The notes beneath the pieces are model-generated. The model saw only the letters and a program-made list of their open reading frames with translations, was not told the DNA's origin and ran no database searches. From Holophagales bacterium (GTDB lineage: Bacteria > Acidobacteriota > Thermoanaerobaculia > Multivoradales > JAGPDF01): 64,000 bases of DNA. The first letter of the stretch is position 1; each line of letters starts with the position of its first letter. Position numbers and translations under genes: made by a program. The stretch lies in NCBI GenBank assembly GCA_016699405.1, contig CP064972.1, positions 4,172,130 through 4,236,129 on the forward strand, written 5' to 3'. Of this stretch, positions 14,899 through 37,082 are shown in pieces.

Positions 14899-15729
14899 TC
14901 AGACAATCCAGAATCTGACCTGCTGCTCCTCGAGGAAGCTCCGCGCTCCGCTGCCCTGGAGGTAGGCGAGGGTCGAGAGCGTACCGGCCTCGAGACAGGA
15001 ACGGGCGACGACGGTGACCGACCGCGGGGCGCCCTGGACCGGCCAGCCGGTGCGTGGGTCGAGGATGTGGCCGAGGCGCTTGCCGCGCCAACGCACGAAG
15101 CGTCGGGCATCGCCGCTGGTCGCCAACCCCGCGCAGGCGAGGTCGAGGCGAACCAGGGCAGCCCGGCCGGAGCGTTCCGGGTCGTCGATCCCGATGCTCC
15201 AGGTGCGGCCGCCCCGTCGGAGATGGCCGACGCAGAGGTCGCCGCCGAAGTTCACCACCGTCGAGGCCGAGGAGCGAGCGGCGAGCAGCGCCGCCACCCG
15301 GTCGACGGCGTACTCCTTGCCGAGGCCGCCGAAGTCGATCTCCATCCCCGCCGGCAGCGTGAGCTCGGGATCGCTCCAGCCGACCTTCGACCACCCCACG
15401 AGCGCGAGACACTCGCCGATCGCCCGCGCCGACGGGATCTGCGTGCCACCGTCGAACGACCAGATCCGCCGCAGGACTCCCGAGGTGATGTCGAACCGCC
15501 CGCCCGAGAGCTCCCAGCAGGTGGCGGCGTAGTGGAGCAACTGCGCGGTCTCCTCGTCGACGCAGACCGGCCGGCCCCCTGCGAGATGGATCTGGTGGAC
15601 GACGCTGTCATCACGATAACGGCTGAACTTGCGCTCGACGCGCCGCGCTTCCTCCGCCGCGATCGCGACGAGCGCCGTCGCCTCCTCGCGATCGTCGGTG
15701 TCGACGAGGACCGAGCAAGGGCTCGCCAT
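14899..15729 (-). CDS. apbE: FAD:protein FMN transferase (ApbE family)
   Basis: ApbE-like sequence throughout (…RRVERKFSRYRDDSVVHQIN… matches the conserved ApbE N-terminal region; …GGLGKEYAVDRV…). No hydrophobic signal peptide lies upstream of Met-15729, so the protein is possibly cytoplasmic or its start is mis-set. Confidence 0.75.
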   Translation of the reverse strand: MASPCSVLVDTDDREEATALVAIAAEEARRVERKFSRYRDDSVVHQIHLAGGRPVCVDEETAQLLHYAATCWELSGGRFDITSGVLRRIWSFDGGTQIPSARAIGECLALVGWSKVGWSDPELTLPAGMEIDFGGLGKEYAVDRVAALLAARSSASTVVNFGGDLCVGHLRRGGRTWSIGIDDPERSGRAALVRLDLACAGLATSGDARRFVRWRGKRLGHILDPRTGWPVQGAPRSVTVVARSCLEAGTLSTLAYLQGSGARSFLEEQQVRFWIV

Positions 15730-15831
15730 CGCCGAGAACCGTCCGACGAAGTAGTCCTCGACGCGCTCGGTCGCCGGAGGCAGCTCCGGCGACCGGGCGA
15801 CGTCGTGCGGGCGAGCGGACAGGAGCGGCCC

Positions 15832-17127
15832 TCAGAAGCGGCGCGAGTAGGCAACGACCAGCGCGACGCTGTTGACTCCCGGCGCCAGGTCGAATCGGCG
15901 CTGCACGCCGATCGCGCCGTCCGGCGAGCCGTCCCCCTGTTGCCGGATGTAGTCCGCCCGCACCGTCCATTCCCCGGGGCTCTCGAACGCCCGGAAGGTG
16001 AAGGCGGCTCCCAGGGTGACCGAGCTCAGCTTGCCCAGCCGGTAATCGGCGGTGGCGAACTCCGGCAGATCGGCCCCTTGGACCAGCCCGGCGGTGAAGA
16101 AGTTGGCCGCCGTCTGCTGATAGAGCCGCAGCCGCGGCTCGAGGTACCAGCCGTCGCCGAGGTCGTGTCGGTACTTCAGCTCGAGGGTGTGGGAGCGCAC
16201 GTCCCACGAGTCCCAGTAATAGCGGTAGGTGCTGTAGAAGATGTCGTCGGTCAGATGGTAGACCGAGCTCAGCAGCAGCGAGTTGCGGTCGCGCGTCGAC
16301 GGCCGCTTGTCGGTGAGCTGGCCGACCGGAACGCCGGTGCGCGGGTCCATCAGGCTGATCACTTTGTACGGCTCGGTGAGGTAGCCCCGCTCGGCGGTGC
16401 GCGAGGCGTCGAGCGCCACCATCCAGCGGCGCGAGAGGATGCGCGACAGGCCGAACAGCACGCTCGTCGAGCGCTTCGAGTTGTTCCGGTCGACGAGCAC
16501 GTTGCCGTCGGAAAGACCCTCGGGTGTCCCGCCGAGGGGCGAGACGCGGTCCTCGTTGACGCCGGCTCCGACGGTGAGGGTGAAGAGCTTCTGCATCAGG
16601 TCGAAGGTGACCTTGCCGTTCGCCCCGAGCGACTCGTAGTCCTTCTCGTGGGAAGCGTGCAACCCGATCGTCGAGGCCGCGAGCCTGCCGAGAGGCGCCT
16701 GCCATTCGCCGTCGAGCGCCACGCGCTGGTCCTGAAAGTCGTTCAACGGGATCTCTCCGGCGGCCGAGGTGGTGACGCGACCGGAGGCACTCGTGTGCGT
16801 CTGCACGCTGCCCGACGGCAGCGCGCCCGTCGGCGAGGCGCCGGTGATCACGTCCACGGTGAGCTGCCCCGAGAGCGACTGCCCGTTGCCGAACAGGCGC
16901 GACGCGCGCACGATCGGTTCGTAGACCTGCGCCCGGCCCTGCTCGCCGTAGAGCAGGGTCGTGATGTCGAGCTGGTTGGCCGGCTGCGTCGACTCGGCCG
17001 AGGCGGCCGCGGGAACCAGCAGCAACGCGAGCGCTGCCTTGCCCAGTCGGTCGCGGAGCGACGGCGTGACCTCGCCGCCCGGAGCCGGCGCGGTGGCGGC
17101 TGCGGCGTCTCTTTCCTCTAGTTGCAT
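15832..17127 (-). CDS. DUF3570-family protein (predicted outer-membrane β-barrel), carries candidate flavinylation motif
   Basis: Signal-peptide-like N-terminal region (LGKAALALLLVPAAASAES). Alternating β-strand pattern. C-terminal …VVAYSRRF with terminal Phe. DVITGAS is encoded at 16834-16854. Confidence 0.7.
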   Translation of the reverse strand: MQLEERDAAAATAPAPGGEVTPSLRDRLGKAALALLLVPAAASAESTQPANQLDITTLLYGEQGRAQVYEPIVRASRLFGNGQSLSGQLTVDVITGASPTGALPSGSVQTHTSASGRVTTSAAGEIPLNDFQDQRVALDGEWQAPLGRLAASTIGLHASHEKDYESLGANGKVTFDLMQKLFTLTVGAGVNEDRVSPLGGTPEGLSDGNVLVDRNNSKRSTSVLFGLSRILSRRWMVALDASRTAERGYLTEPYKVISLMDPRTGVPVGQLTDKRPSTRDRNSLLLSSVYHLTDDIFYSTYRYYWDSWDVRSHTLELKYRHDLGDGWYLEPRLRLYQQTAANFFTAGLVQGADLPEFATADYRLGKLSSVTLGAAFTFRAFESPGEWTVRADYIRQQGDGSPDGAIGVQRRFDLAPGVNSVALVVAYSRRF

Positions 17128-17348
17128 CCGCAGCCTCCGCCTCCGACGTCCTGACCGCCCATCGACGCCTCCTTGCTGAAGTAGATGTGGTCGTCGATGC
17201 CGCGCAGCATCGGGCAGGGATTGAACCGCATCCCCTTCTCGGCGAGCAGGTCACGGTCCCACGGACGCACGCTCGCGCACCCGGCGAGCGCACCGGCGAG
17301 AAGCAGCGTGGCGGCTGCACGCGGCAGCCAGGTCGACAGGTCTCTCAT
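17118..17348 (-). CDS. DUF4266-family lipoprotein
   Basis: 76 aa. Lipobox LAGC. Family-typical C-terminal GGGGCGCN. 10-nt overlap with the downstream DUF3570 gene. Its start overlaps the tlpA-like stop (ATGA). Confidence 0.7.
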   Translation of the reverse strand: MRDLSTWLPRAAATLLLAGALAGCASVRPWDRDLLAEKGMRFNPCPMLRGIDDHIYFSKEASMGGQDVGGGGCGCN

Positions 17349-17881
17349 CTCGCGACGGCCTCCTCGATCCGTCTCTCGATCGCTTCCTCGTCTCGCACGG
17401 CGAATCCGGCATGTTCGAACACGATCCGGCCGTGGCGGTCGACGACATAGCTCGACGGCATGGTCGAGACGCCGTACGCCTCCGCCGTCGTGCCTGCCGG
17501 GTCGAAGGCCACGGTGAAGCTGGGCGAGAACTCGCGCAGAAAGGCCGCGGCCGGCTCCCGCCGCTTGTCGAGATTGATCGCCACGACCACCAGACCGGAC
17601 GAGCGGTAGCGCTCGGCCATCGTCGACAGCCAGGGGAACGACTGCCGGCACGGTCCACACCACGAGGCCCAGAAGTCGATCAAGACCACCTTGCCGCGCA
17701 GCGACTCGAGCGAGACCGGTCCGCGCTCGGTCGGCAGGTCGAAGGCCGCCGCGGACGCCGGCACGGTTGCCGCGGCCCCCTCCGGAGGACGGCGGCGCGC
17801 CTCGGCGGGCGGCGCCAGGAGCGTCGTGAGGAGCAGGAGGGTGAGTCTGGCGAGCGAGCGGATCCCGTGGGCTTCGCGGCG
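17345..17881 (-). CDS. thioredoxin-like thiol:disulfide oxidoreductase (TlpA/ResA family)
   Basis: WCGPC active site (…VVLIDFWASWCGPCRQSFPW…). N-terminal membrane anchor or signal (IRSLARLTLLLLTTLLAPP). Start codon is uncertain; the ATG-based ORF extends to 18031 through an R/S-rich stretch that is probably not coding. Confidence 0.7.
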   Translation of the reverse strand, partial: RREAHGIRSLARLTLLLLTTLLAPPAEARRRPPEGAAATVPASAAAFDLPTERGPVSLESLRGKVVLIDFWASWCGPCRQSFPWLSTMAERYRSSGLVVVAINLDKRREPAAAFLREFSPSFTVAFDPAGTTAEAYGVSTMPSSYVVDRHGRIVFEHAGFAVRDEEAIERRIEEAVAR

Positions 17882-18078
17882 AAGCGATCGGGTGGAGGAA
17901 AAGAGAGCGGTGCGCACGGGTTGGCGCGGCGAGCAAGAGCGGTGCCAGGCCGACGACGCCGAAAGGGCACCGCTCGCGGGGTCCGATGTCGTCATCCCGG
18001 GACAGCTCCGTCGCTTTTCGAGACGGTGCATCGAGGGACAGCAGGTCGATCTCGCGATGGCGGAAGGGTCGAGCCGTC

Positions 18079-18107
18079 TTGACCGGATGGTGGTCCTCCT
18101 CTACGCT
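18079..18107 (+). promoter_or_regulatory. candidate sigma70-type promoter for proBA (TTGACC-17-TACGCT)
   Basis: -35 TTGACC at 18079-18084, a 17-nt spacer, then -10 TACGCT at 18102-18107. It lies in the divergent intergenic region between the tlpA-like gene and proB. Confidence 0.4.
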
Positions 18108-18217
18108 GATTGGCGATGTCGCCCGGGTCGCGCCCTCTTGCCGAGCTCTTCGCACCTGGTCCGCGGAGCCCAGGGCGAGCGGCAGGTTGACCATGCGGGC
18201 GATCGCGCCAATCGCAA

Positions 18218-18249
18218 CCCCCGGGAACGACGAGCACCCGGGGGTTTTT
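18218..18249 (+). terminator. intrinsic terminator/attenuator hairpin in the proB leader
   Basis: cccccggg-(11-nt loop)-cccggggg followed by TTTTT (18245-18249). It lies 23 nt upstream of the proB ATG. A 23-codon uORF (18193-18264) reads through it. Confidence 0.5.
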
Positions 18250-18271
18250 AGTTTCTCGGAGTGAACCCGAA

Positions 18272-19453
18272 ATGAACGGATCGGCAATCCCGAAAGCGGC
18301 GGACCGAGACCTGGCCGACCGCCCGGAGATCGCCGCCGCGCAGCGCGTCGTGATCAAAGTCGGCACGCGCGTGCTCACCGGCGACGACGGCGGCCTCGCG
18401 CTGTCGCGTCTCTTCGCCCTCGTCGAGACGGCGGCGCGGCTGCGACGTCGCGGGCGCGAAGTGCTGATCGTCAGCTCGGGCGCCGTCGGGCTCGGGCGCG
18501 ACGCACTGGGTCTCGCCACGAGCCCGCTCGAGCTCGCCGAGCGTCAGGCCTGCGCCGCCGTCGGCCAGTGCCGGCTGATGGCGCTCTACGACGCGGGCTT
18601 CGCCCGGCTCGGCCTGGTCTGCGCCCAGGTGCTGCTCACCCAGAGCGATTTCGACGATCGCGCCCGCTATCTCGCCCTGCGCGACACGCTGACCGCACTG
18701 CTGCGTCACGGCGTGGTGCCGGTGATCAACGAAAACGACACCGTCTCGACCGAAGAGCTCGCCTTCGTCGGCGCCGCTCACGGCGAACGCCCGGTGTTCG
18801 GCGACAACGACCGACTGGCGGCGCTCGTCGCCACCAAGCTCGGCGCCGAGCTGCTGCTGCTCGCCACCGACGTCGAAGGCCTCTACGACCGCGACCCACG
18901 AGAGCCCGGCGCCCGTCTCGTCGAACGGCTCGACGACCCGGCGACGCTCGATGGCGTCCTCCCGGGAGCGGCGAGCGGCGGCTCCGGGCGCGGCGGCATC
19001 CGTAGCAAGGTCGACTCGGCCTGGATCGCCGCGCGCTCAGGCTGCCACGCGGTGATCGCCTCGGGGCGCCGGCCCGGCGCGCTCGACGCGGTGCTCGACG
19101 GCGCGACGGTCGGGACGTGGTTCCCGGCTCACGCCGGGGCGCTGCCGGCTCGTCACCGCTGGCTGGCGTTCGCCACCGCGCCGCGCGGCGTCCTCCATCT
19201 CGACGCCGGCGCCGTCGCTGCCCTGCGCGAGCGCGGCGCGTCGCTGCTCGCTCGCGGCGTCACCCGCGTCGACGGCGAGTTCGAGCGCGGCGAGGCAGTC
19301 GACCTGGTCGGCCCGGACCGCCGCCGCGTCGGCCGCGGCATCGTCTACTGCGACGCCGCCGCCGCTCGCGCCTGGAGCGCCGGCCAGGCGCCGGATGGGG
19401 TGCGCAACCACCACGCGCTGATCCACCGCGATCATCTGGTGCTCGAGCCATGA
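18272..19453 (+). CDS. proB: glutamate 5-kinase (with C-terminal PUA domain)
   Basis: …VIKVGTRVLT…, …LIVSSGAVGLG… and an aspartokinase-type fold. 393 aa. ATGA overlap with proA. Confidence 0.9.
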   Translation: MNGSAIPKAADRDLADRPEIAAAQRVVIKVGTRVLTGDDGGLALSRLFALVETAARLRRRGREVLIVSSGAVGLGRDALGLATSPLELAERQACAAVGQCRLMALYDAGFARLGLVCAQVLLTQSDFDDRARYLALRDTLTALLRHGVVPVINENDTVSTEELAFVGAAHGERPVFGDNDRLAALVATKLGAELLLLATDVEGLYDRDPREPGARLVERLDDPATLDGVLPGAASGGSGRGGIRSKVDSAWIAARSGCHAVIASGRRPGALDAVLDGATVGTWFPAHAGALPARHRWLAFATAPRGVLHLDAGAVAALRERGASLLARGVTRVDGEFERGEAVDLVGPDRRRVGRGIVYCDAAAARAWSAGQAPDGVRNHHALIHRDHLVLEP

Positions 19454-20748
19454 GCCCGGCCGAGCTCGTCGCGCTCGCTCGTGACGCTCGACGCGCCCAG
19501 CGTCGGCTCGCCGCCGGCGGCGGCGAGCGGCGGACCGCGGTGCTGCGCCGCCTGGCCGAACGGCTCACCACGCACCAGGAGGAGCTGATCGCGGAGAACC
19601 GCGCCGACGTCGACGAGGCCGAGCGCCAGGGCCTGGCGCGGCCGCTGCTCGACCGCCTGCGGCTCGGCGCCGGCAAGCTCGCCGTCCTCGGCCAGGGCCT
19701 CGAAACCCTGGCGGCGGCTGGCGACCCCGTCGGTCGCGTCCTGCGCGCCACCGAGCTCGACGAAGGCCTCGTCCTGCGCCAGGTCACGAGCCCGCTCGGC
19801 GTGCTGCTGGTGATCTTCGAGAGCCGCCCCGACGCCGTGGTGCAGATCGGCGCGCTGGCGTTGCGCGCCGGCGATGCGGTCCTCCTCAAGGGGGGCGCCG
19901 AGGCCACGCGCTCCAATCGCGCCCTCGTCGGTTGCCTGCGCGCCGCGCTGGCCGACGAAGGGTTGGACCCCGCCGCCGTCACCCTCGTCGAAGGTCGCGA
20001 CGCCGTGCACGGCCTTCTCGCCCTCGACCACGAGATCGACCTGGTGATCCCGCGGGGCTCGAGCGAGCTCGTGCGCACGGTGCAGGCGGCCACCCGGATT
20101 CCCGTGCTCGGACACGCCGAGGGCATCTGCCATCTCTACCTCGACGCGGCGGCCGACCCCGACAAGGCGCTGCGCCTCGCCATCGACGGCAAGTGCGACG
20201 CGCCGTCGGCCTGCAATGCCACCGAGACGCTGCTGGTCCATCGCGCCTTCCTGCCGCTCCTGCCGGCGCTCGGTGCGGCGTTCGCCGCCCTCGGCGTCGA
20301 GTTGCGGGCCGACGACGAGGCACTCGCCGTGCTGCCGGTGGCCATGCCGGCCGGCGAGCGCGACGGGGCGACCGAGTACGGCGACCTGATTCTCGCCGTG
20401 CGCACCGTCAGCTCGCTCGACGAGGCGGTGGCGTGGATCCACGAGCACGGCTCGGCGCACACCGACGCGATCGTCACCGAAGACCGCGTCGCCGCCGCCC
20501 GATTTCTCGCCGAGGTCGACTCGGCCTCGGTCTTCGTCAACGCGTCGACGCGCTTCGCCGACGGGTTCCGCTACGGACTGGGCGCCGAGGTCGGGATCAG
20601 CACCTCACGCCTCCACGCCCGCGGCCCGGTCGGCGTCGAGGGTCTGCTCACCACGCGCTGGCTGCTCGAGGGCGATGGCCACGTTGCCGGCGACTACGCT
20701 CCCGGTCGACGCACCTTCCGCCACCGGCCGCTCGCGCCCGCACCGTAA
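19450..20748 (+). CDS. proA: gamma-glutamyl phosphate reductase
   Basis: Aldehyde-dehydrogenase-like protein with conserved catalytic Cys (…DAPSACNATETLLVH…). Translationally coupled to proB. Confidence 0.9.
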   Translation: MSPAELVALARDARRAQRRLAAGGGERRTAVLRRLAERLTTHQEELIAENRADVDEAERQGLARPLLDRLRLGAGKLAVLGQGLETLAAAGDPVGRVLRATELDEGLVLRQVTSPLGVLLVIFESRPDAVVQIGALALRAGDAVLLKGGAEATRSNRALVGCLRAALADEGLDPAAVTLVEGRDAVHGLLALDHEIDLVIPRGSSELVRTVQAATRIPVLGHAEGICHLYLDAAADPDKALRLAIDGKCDAPSACNATETLLVHRAFLPLLPALGAAFAALGVELRADDEALAVLPVAMPAGERDGATEYGDLILAVRTVSSLDEAVAWIHEHGSAHTDAIVTEDRVAAARFLAEVDSASVFVNASTRFADGFRYGLGAEVGISTSRLHARGPVGVEGLLTTRWLLEGDGHVAGDYAPGRRTFRHRPLAPAP

Positions 20749-35315: not shown

Positions 35316-37082
35316 ATGAACCCGCTCATCCGACCCCACGTCGCGCGCTTCGCCCGCGCCCTGGCCCACCTCGTCGTCGCGTCCGGCCTGATCGTCGTCT
35401 CCACGCACGCGGCCGCCGCCCAGACCCCTCCCCCTTCGGCTCCGGTCTTCGGCGAATCGGTCGAGGTCAACCTGGTCAACATCGACGTCGTCGTCGTCGA
35501 CAAGGACGGCCGACCGGTCGTCGGGCTGACGCGCGACGACTTCTCCCTCTTCGAGGAAGGCCGGTCGGTTCCGATCGAGTTCTTCTCCGGCCCCGAGCCG
35601 GGCGCCGTCTTCGTGCCGCTGCCGGGGGCCGCAGCCGCTCCCGCCGCCCCGACGCCGACCGTCCAACCCACCGCCGCGCCGGTGCCGCCGATCCAGCGCC
35701 CGGTGCTGGTGATCTACGTCGACGGGCTCGACCTGCGCCCCGGTCCGCGCAACGACTCGCTCAAGCGCCTCGCCCGGCTGGTCGACGATCGGATGATCAT
35801 CGGCCACCGCGTGCTGCTGGCGGCGTTCGACCGGAACCTGCGACTGCTCACCCCGGTGACCGACGACCGCAAGCTCGTCCGCCGGGCCTTCGACGAGCTG
35901 GCGACGATCAACCCGGGTGGCATCGGCATGCAGACGCGACGCCGGACGCTGCTCGCCGACATCCAGAGCACCTTCGCCGGCGACTCGGCCGGGAACTCGC
36001 AGGCCGAGAGCCTCCTGCACGACATCGAGGCCTACGCCACCTCCGAGACCCAGGAGCGTCGCGCCGCGATGGTGGCGCTTGCCGACCTGCTCTCCACGCT
36101 CGCCGGAATCGACGGGCCGAAGGCGGTCTTCCATCTGAGCGGAGGCCTCCCGGTGCAGCCGGCCGACGACCTCTACTCCGCCTGGCAGCGCCGCTTCGGC
36201 TCGTCGGTGAGCAGCGACCTCGACCATCGCCGCACCGGTGGCGATCCCGACGCGCAGATCCTGCAGCGGGAGCTGCAGCGCATCACCCGGGCCGCCCAGG
36301 CCAGCCGCGCGGTGATCTACACCGTCGACGGCGCCGACCGCCTCGCCGAAGGGCTGAGCGCCGAGGACCAGGGTGAGGTCGAATCGAGCGGCGACGCTCC
36401 CGGCGTCCTCGGCGCGGCCGAGGCGAGCTCGAACCTCGCCAGCCTCGCCGAGCGCAGCGGCGGCCACAAGCTGATGGCCGGTCCGGGCCTCGACGGCGCT
36501 CTCGGCGACGTGGCGAGCGAGCTCGCCTCGACGTATTCACTCGGCTTCACGCCTGCCGGAACGGCCGACGACAGGTTGCACTCGGTCACCGTGAAGGTGA
36601 AGCGCGAAGGGGTGACCGTGCGCCATCGCGAAGGCTACCGCCGGCGCAGCACCGAGGATCAGCTCGCCGACGCGGCGATCGCCGCCGCCAGCTTCGGGGC
36701 CACGCAAAACCCGCTCGCCGCGCGGGTCGACGTCGCGGTGGGCGGCGCTGCCAAGGGGAAGGCGCGCATCGTCAAGGTGCTCGCCAAGGTTCCCCTGTCG
36801 TTGATCACCTTGATGCCGAACGGCACCTCGCAGTCCGGCAAGCTGGTCTTCGATTTCGCACTGCGGGACCCGGACGGGCGTGTCACGCGCTACGAGCGGC
36901 GCGAACAGGCGTTCAAGCTCGCCGCCGACAAGGTGGCCGAGGCGCTTGGCCGCCCCGTCGCCTACGGCATCGAGATGCACCTCGTGCCGGGAACCTACCG
37001 GCTCGCGGCGTCGATTCTCGACGCGGTCGGCGGCACCCGCACCACCGCGGCTGCCGAGTTCACCGTCCCCGGCAGTCGCTGA
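35316..37082 (+). CDS. secreted VWA-domain protein (VWFA-related Acidobacterial-type), paralog B
   Basis: Signal peptide (HLVVASGLIVVSTHAAAAQ). Collinear with paralog A. Confidence 0.8.
   Translation: MNPLIRPHVARFARALAHLVVASGLIVVSTHAAAAQTPPPSAPVFGESVEVNLVNIDVVVVDKDGRPVVGLTRDDFSLFEEGRSVPIEFFSGPEPGAVFVPLPGAAAAPAAPTPTVQPTAAPVPPIQRPVLVIYVDGLDLRPGPRNDSLKRLARLVDDRMIIGHRVLLAAFDRNLRLLTPVTDDRKLVRRAFDELATINPGGIGMQTRRRTLLADIQSTFAGDSAGNSQAESLLHDIEAYATSETQERRAAMVALADLLSTLAGIDGPKAVFHLSGGLPVQPADDLYSAWQRRFGSSVSSDLDHRRTGGDPDAQILQRELQRITRAAQASRAVIYTVDGADRLAEGLSAEDQGEVESSGDAPGVLGAAEASSNLASLAERSGGHKLMAGPGLDGALGDVASELASTYSLGFTPAGTADDRLHSVTVKVKREGVTVRHREGYRRRSTEDQLADAAIAAASFGATQNPLAARVDVAVGGAAKGKARIVKVLAKVPLSLITLMPNGTSQSGKLVFDFALRDPDGRVTRYERREQAFKLAADKVAEALGRPVAYGIEMHLVPGTYRLAASILDAVGGTRTTAAAEFTVPGSR

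Follow-up and report, generated by a model that had tools for sequence, protein, structure and literature searches.

A conserved leader terminator ahead of proBA in Holophagales-like Acidobacteriota, a candidate leader-peptide attenuator

How is a biosynthetic operon expressed when a predicted intrinsic terminator stands directly before its first gene? The question is raised by the proline biosynthesis genes proBA of a Holophagales bacterium (Acidobacteriota), which lie in a 64,000-nucleotide (nt) stretch of contig CP064972.1. We call this whole stretch the window; its G+C content is 72%. A preliminary description of the same DNA had proposed an attenuating leader here, made of a promoter and a terminator-like hairpin directly before proBA. 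Both elements are present, and they are conserved in all four of the leader variants that we recovered. The cassette and its target genes read as follows, in window coordinates:

18079 to 18084, plus strand: −35-like hexamer TTGACC, by direct reading
18102 to 18107, plus strand: −10-like hexamer TACGCT, by direct reading, after a 17-nt spacer and with three of six consensus positions
18216 to 18246, plus strand: intrinsic-terminator hairpin, by reading and folding, with a 10-base-pair (bp) stem that includes eight G-C pairs and a loop of 11 nt
18245 to 18256, plus strand: T-rich tail TTTTTAGTTTCT, beginning with TTTTT at 18245 to 18249
18258 to 18261, plus strand: GGAG, the Shine-Dalgarno sequence of proB, by direct reading, abutted by the U-rich stretch
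18272 to 19453, plus strand: proB, glutamate 5-kinase, 393 amino acids, with Pfam domains AA_kinase and PUA
19450 to 20748, plus strand: proA, glutamate-5-semialdehyde dehydrogenase, overlapping the proB stop, with Pfam domain Aldedh; the called gene of L173, one of the related loci described below, maps there

The cassette is probably a functional cis-acting leader terminator, as judged from its sequence and its conservation. Its layout would make it an attenuator in the structural sense, and a leader that attenuates transcription is the most economical reading. How such a leader might be switched can be said with less assurance. The explanation we favour, tentatively, is a trp-type leader-peptide attenuator acting in cis on proBA within a narrow Holophagales-like clade and possibly sensing proline. 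A mechanism mediated by the ribosome or by proline is compatible with the data rather than demonstrated by them, and we regard it as possible more than probable.

The terminator and its conservation

The hairpin before proB has the form of an intrinsic (Rho-independent) terminator. Its G-C stem is built from cccccggg (18218 to 18225) paired with cccggggg (18237 to 18244), two A-T pairs extend it to 10 bp, and its computed energy is −20.8 kcal/mol. A U-tract follows this GC-rich stem-loop immediately, as in intrinsic terminators, and we treat the element as a predicted terminator. Automated consensus scans had missed both the promoter and the hairpin, the −10 element falling below threshold with its three of six positions and the loop exceeding the 8-nt limit; direct reading bore out every coordinate that the preliminary description had assigned to promoter, hairpin, T-run and proB start. 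Because only 22 nt separate the T-run from the proB ATG (18272), proBA must be transcribed through the terminator. The upstream neighbour of proB in the window is a divergent gene of the redoxin family, so the hairpin cannot serve to terminate it. A longer proB containing the hairpin is ruled out for the window, 18272 being the first start codon past an in-frame stop.

Taken by itself, the window sequence places the hairpin above chance suggestively, not decisively. TTTTT at 18245 to 18249 is the sole run of five T on the plus strand of the window, and no other hairpin on either strand combines a stem of 8 bp or more with a T-run behind it. The exact pair of arms did not occur in 100 shuffles; generic hairpins of that stem length with four T behind them are expected about 0.6 times per shuffled 64-kilobase window, both strands counted. 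We judge the hairpin non-random because the whole series of promoter, hairpin, T-run and Shine-Dalgarno sequence is kept before proB in three other, diverged leaders. One other hairpin with a T-run was seen in the window, on the minus strand at 36708 to 36728, where GACCCGCGCGGCGAGCGGGTT forms a 7-bp stem and is followed by TTGCG. A repeat of the repetitive extragenic palindrome or bacterial interspersed mosaic element kind, or a mobile palindrome, was rejected as the source of the proB hairpin, which is single-copy within the window.

Finding those diverged leaders required close relatives. ProB scans of one-genome-per-species and metagenome collections returned 160 loci, none closer than 70% identity, and the cassette was not found in these loci (ProB identity at most 70%). 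Closer relatives came from a large protein database, and their DNA from exact-protein look-ups. The resulting leaders fall into four distinct variants, of which the window and L171 are close to each other:

Variant 1: the window, with L161, L170 and L173 identical to it
Variant 2: L171, with L172 identical to it; ProB 93% identical to that of the window
Variant 3: L162, with L174 and L175 identical to it; ProB 97% identical
Variant 4: L163; ProB 82% identical

L174 and L175 come from an activated-sludge metagenome, and L173, L174 and L175 added no new variant.

The cassette persists while the sequence around it changes. At the −35 element, CTTGACCG is invariant across the four variants, though its flanks are unalignable in L162 and L163. 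Three variants (window, L171 and L162) share the −10 element TACGCT; in L163 it reads TAACCT and the spacer is 18 nt long. All four variants keep a hairpin whose core is C5:G5, and behind it a T-run and then another T-rich stretch (tails TTTCTAGTTTTT, TTTTTCGTTTTC and CTTTTCGTTTCC in the three others); hairpin energies range from −17.7 to −22.1 kcal/mol, and each hairpin is followed by three to five T. The Shine-Dalgarno sequence (aligned GAG/GGAGG) is likewise kept in all variants, and the distance from hairpin and T-run to the proB ATG stays at 22 to 26 nt. The loop measures 11, 10, 11 and 4 nt in the window, L171, L162 and L163, and in L163 it is wholly replaced by GAGA. The pair flanking the C5:G5 block goes from A-U to G-C in L163, with a matching change in the first T of the tail. 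MAFFT misaligned the L163 5' arm; the conservation of pairs was read directly from the sequences. A chance GC-rich hairpin beside a T-run, devoid of function, might be entertained on the expected frequency of generic hairpins given above, but the same distance to proB in four diverged leaders, the compensatory change and the loop replacement refute it, as does the failure of shuffling to yield the arm pair, and we consider it extremely improbable.

The cassette is linked to proB and not to its neighbours. The roughly 100 nt between promoter and terminator are nearly unalignable among variants, and the genes upstream are a redoxin gene in the window and L171, an A2M-type gene with small open reading frames (ORFs) in L162, and a co-directional gene in L163. 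From about codon 17 on, proBA of L162 is 98–100% identical to that of the window, whereas the leader is only 51–68% identical; the L162 leader is therefore a diverged allele acquired through recombination. More distant ProB relatives (identity of 73% or less), including P0003 to P0006 and P0009 at 69–73%, are without the cassette and either abut an upstream gene or have a hairpin-less leader. By sequence comparison, then, the cassette is confined to a narrow clade of uncultured Holophagales-like Acidobacteriota with ProB identity of at least 82%.

L162 also shows a sharp recombination breakpoint within the 5' end of proB (L162 2700 to 3050 against window 17970 to 18320). What differs from the window beyond it comprises the leader, the first 50 nt or so of proB and all upstream genes, with the A2M-type gene and small ORFs standing in place of redoxin, DUF4266, DUF3570 and ApbE. 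Three contigs carry the breakpoint sequence, namely L162 (one ENA assembly) and the pair L174 and L175 (ENA and Logan assemblies of run ERR1076074).

A leader ORF at a conserved position

Between promoter and terminator, the four leaders share the position of a short upstream open reading frame, which we call uORF1. It is not the ORF that the preliminary description had singled out, which begins downstream of it and runs through the hairpin. The features that bear on the choice between them are:

18116 to 18190, plus strand: uORF1, 24 codons plus TGA, MSPGSRPLAELFAPGPRSPGRAAG, its position conserved in four variants
18193 to 18264, plus strand: the ORF first proposed, 23 codons through the hairpin, MRAIAPIATPGNDEHPGVFSFSE and a stop; not conserved
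18149 to 18179, plus strand: apex hairpin inside uORF1, codons 12 to 21, in minimum-free-energy folds
18108 to 18213, plus strand: long GC-rich leader helix enclosing uORF1, a predicted fold not common to all variants

The placement of uORF1 is regular even where its sequence is not. Its ATG lies 8 nt past the −10 element in the window and 8 to 11 nt past it across variants. A transcript starting 0 to 5 nt before this AUG would make uORF1 a leaderless or near-leaderless ORF. It is 24, 24, 21 and 21 codons long in the window, L171, L162 and L163, so that the length differences (9 nt) are in frame; the peptides of the three relatives are MSPGSRPLAELFAPGPRGPGRVAG (L171), MSTPRSRIAVFLSPSLRGTAG (L162) and MTAAARRRPCPCPRPHRGADA (L163). 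Codon 17 is CGG in all four, exactly 48 nt separate ATG and CGG, and the stop stands 25 to 28 nt before the terminator stem in every variant. Apart from the proB start, the L163 leader has a single ATG, and this aligns with the start of uORF1. When L171 is compared with the window, changes in the uORF1 frame comprise five silent ones (four synonymous and TGA to TAG) and two replacements, compared with silent-to-replacement ratios of 1:5 and 2:4 in the other frames. These are hints, not proof, that uORF1 is a translated leader ORF.

Predicted folds place a potential switch within uORF1. An apex hairpin is predicted at the same place in all four variants; in the window its C-rich 5' strand carries Pro-14 and Pro-16 and its G-rich 3' strand is CCCAGGGCG (18169 to 18177), and across the variants the 5' strand holds Pro-14 (Pro-13 and Pro-15 in L163). 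In L171, L162 and L163, no upstream site pairs better with the terminator 5' arm than the G-rich strand of codons 14 to 19; in the window the apex G-rich strand is the second-best partner (−13.6 kcal/mol), after a site at the 5' end of uORF1 (−14.7 kcal/mol). The corresponding energies in the three relatives range from −13.6 to −19.7 kcal/mol. We modelled the effect of a translating ribosome by folding only the RNA downstream of it, before the 3' arm is made; masking the ribosome while letting the RNA on its two sides pair had given results that did not agree with one another, and it was replaced. A ribosome placed at the stop codon leaves the terminator 5' arm free in every variant (sequestration probability at most 0.22); when it is placed at codons 11 to 14, the arm is sequestered in all four, with probability 0.50–1.0. 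In this model, the direction of the ribosome-position effect would follow trp-type logic.

The mechanism that we favour would run as follows. Transcription would start at the sigma-70-type promoter, at the uORF1 AUG or a few nucleotides upstream of it, and the intrinsic terminator (18216 to 18249) would come about 25 nt past the uORF1 stop and 22 nt ahead of the proB ATG. Smooth translation of uORF1 would bring the ribosome to the stop and leave the 5' arm free, so that the hairpin folds and transcription stops ahead of proB, yielding an RNA of about 135 nt. A ribosome lingering in the C-rich 5' strand of the apex, which in the window carries Pro codons 14 and 16 and in each variant has a Pro codon at 13 or 14, would release the G-rich 3' strand (18169 to 18177). 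The released strand could then pair with the C-rich arm of the terminator while the 3' arm is still to be transcribed, and polymerase would enter proBA. That the signal is proline, read as Pro-tRNA through a leaderless or near-leaderless ORF of 21 to 24 codons with one to four scattered Pro codons, is a narrower claim, and one that we find doubtful.

Several observations weigh against a proline-sensing leader peptide. Pro codons number 5, 5, 2 and 4 among the 24, 24, 21 and 21 codons of the four variants, and with about 13% CCN codons expected at 72% G+C they are not enriched. They are never in tandem, L162 has only two, and loose clusters occur in L163 (PCPCPRP) and the window (APGPRSP) with none in L162; codon 13/14 is the one shared Pro position, and the cluster of cognate codons typical of trp and his leaders is absent. 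Pro at 13/14 may itself merely reflect a C-rich strand bound to pair with a G-rich one. As for translation, uORF1 has no Shine-Dalgarno sequence, its transcription start is placed by spacing alone, and the silent bias rests on seven changed codons and is confounded by RNA pairing. In 43%, 20%, 36% and 9.5% of trials, a dinucleotide-shuffled leader sequesters the arm at least as strongly as the real one, there are four independent variants only, two of which (the window and L171) are close, and at equilibrium the terminator always wins. In classical attenuators, too, the terminator wins at equilibrium and the switch relies on kinetics.

Competing explanations

Two rival accounts of the conserved terminator do without a leader peptide. 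In one, the attenuator answers to a trans factor or a small molecule, be it an RNA-binding protein, a riboswitch-like ligand or the status of NusA, NusG or nucleoside triphosphates, and the short ORF is incidental. We think this unlikely, if more plausible than any other alternative considered here. It fits the facts that what is conserved is the terminator and its position, that a ribosome-linked antiterminator does not rise above chance and that Pro codons show no enrichment; in many predicted attenuators an antiterminator is not visible, and attenuators of Acidobacteria are almost entirely unannotated (PMC2965389). The leaders of the window and L171 are also unusually stable (z scores of −3.1 and −3.3), but L162 and L163 (−0.55 and −0.48) do not have this stable fold, the terminator loop is freely replaced, and no conserved core lies between promoter and terminator, where identity falls to 51–68% against 98–100% in proBA. 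The conserved ATG, the in-frame length changes and the retained stop would go unexplained. A metabolite riboswitch typically keeps an aptamer core conserved above its genes, and no such core appears in the four leaders. Rfam yielded no family, T-box included, for the whole window at gathering scores, for the window leader at E values up to 10 or for the L162, L163 and L171 leaders at E values up to 1; the sole match was a spurious small nucleolar RNA on the opposite strand (E value 6.7). A riboswitch or protein-binding aptamer is accordingly unlikely, given a region from ATG to terminator that is the least conserved, a fold stability that is not shared, a replaceable loop and no Rfam match. 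A factor that works on the terminator itself is conceivable. The other account needs no conditional switch: the cassette would be the gene of a small RNA of about 135 nt, a constitutive leaky terminator or a 5' stabiliser, its U-rich tail acting as a translation enhancer of proB or as an Hfq site. This ranks after the trans-factor account and is also improbable. It has in its favour an own promoter and terminator, a highly structured body in the window, the U-rich stretch that abuts the Shine-Dalgarno sequence, and the precedent of released attenuator RNAs that can act in trans, such as rnTrpL in Sinorhizobium (PMC6614838). Against it, the cassette goes with proB throughout and in no case with the upstream genes, which vary, 22 nt leave no room for a separate proBA promoter, and the body of the putative small RNA is hardly conserved and is single-copy within the window.

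A third rival is the model of the preliminary description, in which translation of the 23-codon ORF at 18193 to 18264 runs through the hairpin and the ribosome, when it stalls at Pro, blocks the terminator. The ORF exists, a weak AGG lies 7 nt upstream of its ATG, and its Pro codons are where they were said to be, with Pro-10 (ccc, 18220 to 18222) in the 5' arm and Pro-16 (ccg, 18238 to 18240) in the 3' arm. Comparison of relatives, which the preliminary description had suggested as a check on whether ORF and hairpin vary together, gave a split result: the hairpin is kept and the ORF is not conserved as a unit in L171, L162 or L163. In L171, the loop has lost 1 nt and a T has been added, which brings the corresponding ORF into the proB frame with no intervening stop and so fuses it to the gene. 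The hairpin-spanning ORF of L162 starts at an ATG 17 nt nearer the hairpin and in another frame, and it ends in ATGA on the proB start, a point that could be read in the model's favour. L163 has no ORF of this kind with an ATG, GTG or TTG start. A Pro codon in each arm is uninformative because the C5 run yields a CCN codon in every frame, as CCCGG does in the other arm; and since the stop lies downstream of the terminator, any translation would melt the hairpin, in proline shortage and proline plenty alike. The leader ORF of E. coli pyrBI likewise reads through its terminator, sensing UTP via polymerase pausing; unlike it, the read-through ORF here is not conserved in relatives. We therefore regard this ORF as a very improbable proline sensor. 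In the window and L171, its ATG stands 2 nt past the uORF1 stop (window 18188 to 18195, GGT TGA CC ATG; L171 857 to 864, GGC TAG TC ATG), a possible termination-reinitiation arrangement, so that reinitiation is conceivable.

Relation to known systems and neighbouring loci

With uORF1 as a putative leader peptide, the proBA cassette resembles classical attenuators in layout. Like the E. coli attenuators of trp, his, leu, thr, pheA and ilv, it presents a promoter, a short ORF, a stop, an intrinsic terminator and the first biosynthetic gene in that order; as in trp- and his-type leaders, a hairpin covers the 3' part of the leader ORF, the stop is upstream of the terminator, and the spacing fits the 1:2/2:3/3:4 scheme. 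It differs from them in having neither a run of cognate codons nor a Shine-Dalgarno sequence, in an ORF that begins about 0 to 5 nt from the predicted transcript start, and in an antiterminator without statistical support. The cluster of cognate codons being the defining trait of that class, we would not file the proBA leader as a proven member of it.

Short leader ORFs that read Pro-tRNA, or that begin at the 5' end of the transcript, are known from other operons. Control of mgtA in Salmonella acts through Rho. The Salmonella leader ORF mgtP is short, and its Pro codons report Pro-tRNA and switch leader structures (PMC3641672). Sensing of Pro-tRNA by a short ORF with Pro codons is what mgtP (mgtCBR), mgtL (mgtA) and, in our proposal, the leader discussed here have in common, whereas the Salmonella targets are Mg2+ transport and virulence genes with conserved, clustered Pro codons and ours are proBA, with an intrinsic terminator and few Pro codons. 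In mycobacteria, leaderless polycysteine short ORFs attenuate cysteine operons (bioRxiv 10.1101/834739). These offer a 5'-terminal short ORF as an amino-acid-responsive attenuator in a high-G+C bacterium; they differ in their runs of Cys codons and in that an intrinsic terminator is no hallmark of theirs, and the leaderless start of the proBA ORF is placed only by the spacing of −10 element and ATG.

Attenuation of proBA is not without parallel. Outside the Firmicutes, with their T-box, the control of proline biosynthesis is usually ascribed to feedback inhibition of ProB. The preliminary description had on this ground called a proline-sensing leader of proBA unusual, which is only partly right: in Bacillus subtilis, according to a passage in PMC9245794 that cites Brill et al. 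2011, proBA and proI are controlled by a tRNA-Pro T-box through termination and antitermination. The operon and the conditional termination in a leader would be the same in both cases, and the T-box answers proline supply (PMC9245794). The Holophagales leader, in contrast, has no match to the T-box model, no specifier loop and no T-box sequence, is about 135 nt long and is unconserved in sequence. A literature search turned up no leader-peptide attenuator of proBA. We know of none.

What the cassette would mean depends on the mechanism. In Acidobacteriota, a conserved terminator leader ahead of proBA would bring a transcriptional layer into the control of proline biosynthesis, and it would be a compact test case for leader-peptide switches at about 72% G+C, where intrinsic terminators are rare. 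If the proline-sensing reading held, it would be, to our knowledge, the first description of leader-peptide attenuation in proline biosynthesis and also the first attenuator to be characterised in Acidobacteriota, and it would suggest that a strand order of C-rich (with Pro codons), G-rich, C-rich and G-rich can build such a switch in high-G+C genomes. The scope is narrow, at ProB identity of at least 82% among uncultured organisms, and the impact would be modest unless the mechanism proves unusual.

The genes around the leader are themselves partly conserved. The proB product of the window is identical to QQR73213.1, labelled 'MAG: Holophagales bacterium' (MAG, metagenome-assembled genome; Acidobacteriota). 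Beside the leader, a conserved divergent cluster of ApbE, DUF3570, DUF4266 and redoxin occupies window positions 14899 to 17995 on the minus strand. The redoxin ORF carries a long N-terminal extension ahead of a segment that resembles a signal peptide; by comparison with L171, where the gene is called at 160 amino acids, its true start is probably downstream of 17995, and the intergenic region may measure about 440 nt. A search for genes of tRNA and transfer-messenger RNA found none.

Hairpins followed by T-runs also occur upstream of proB in more distant loci. In the Pseudomonas-type loci L038, L054, L138 and L148, at about 2421 to 2454, a 9- to 11-bp hairpin (AAACGCCGC...GCGGCGTTT) with a T-run ends at most 8 nt from the estimated proB start, and in L053 (2448 to 2469) the same hairpin overlaps that start by 16 nt. 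Most likely these hairpins serve as terminators of a gene that lies upstream in the same orientation; they have no relation to the Holophagales cassette. In L060 (2267 to 2369), from an Anaerobiospirillum metagenome-assembled genome, three tandem units of hairpin and T-run stand upstream of proB, with 11-bp stems and 37 nt apart; they resemble repeats of the repetitive extragenic palindrome type or a stacked array of terminators.

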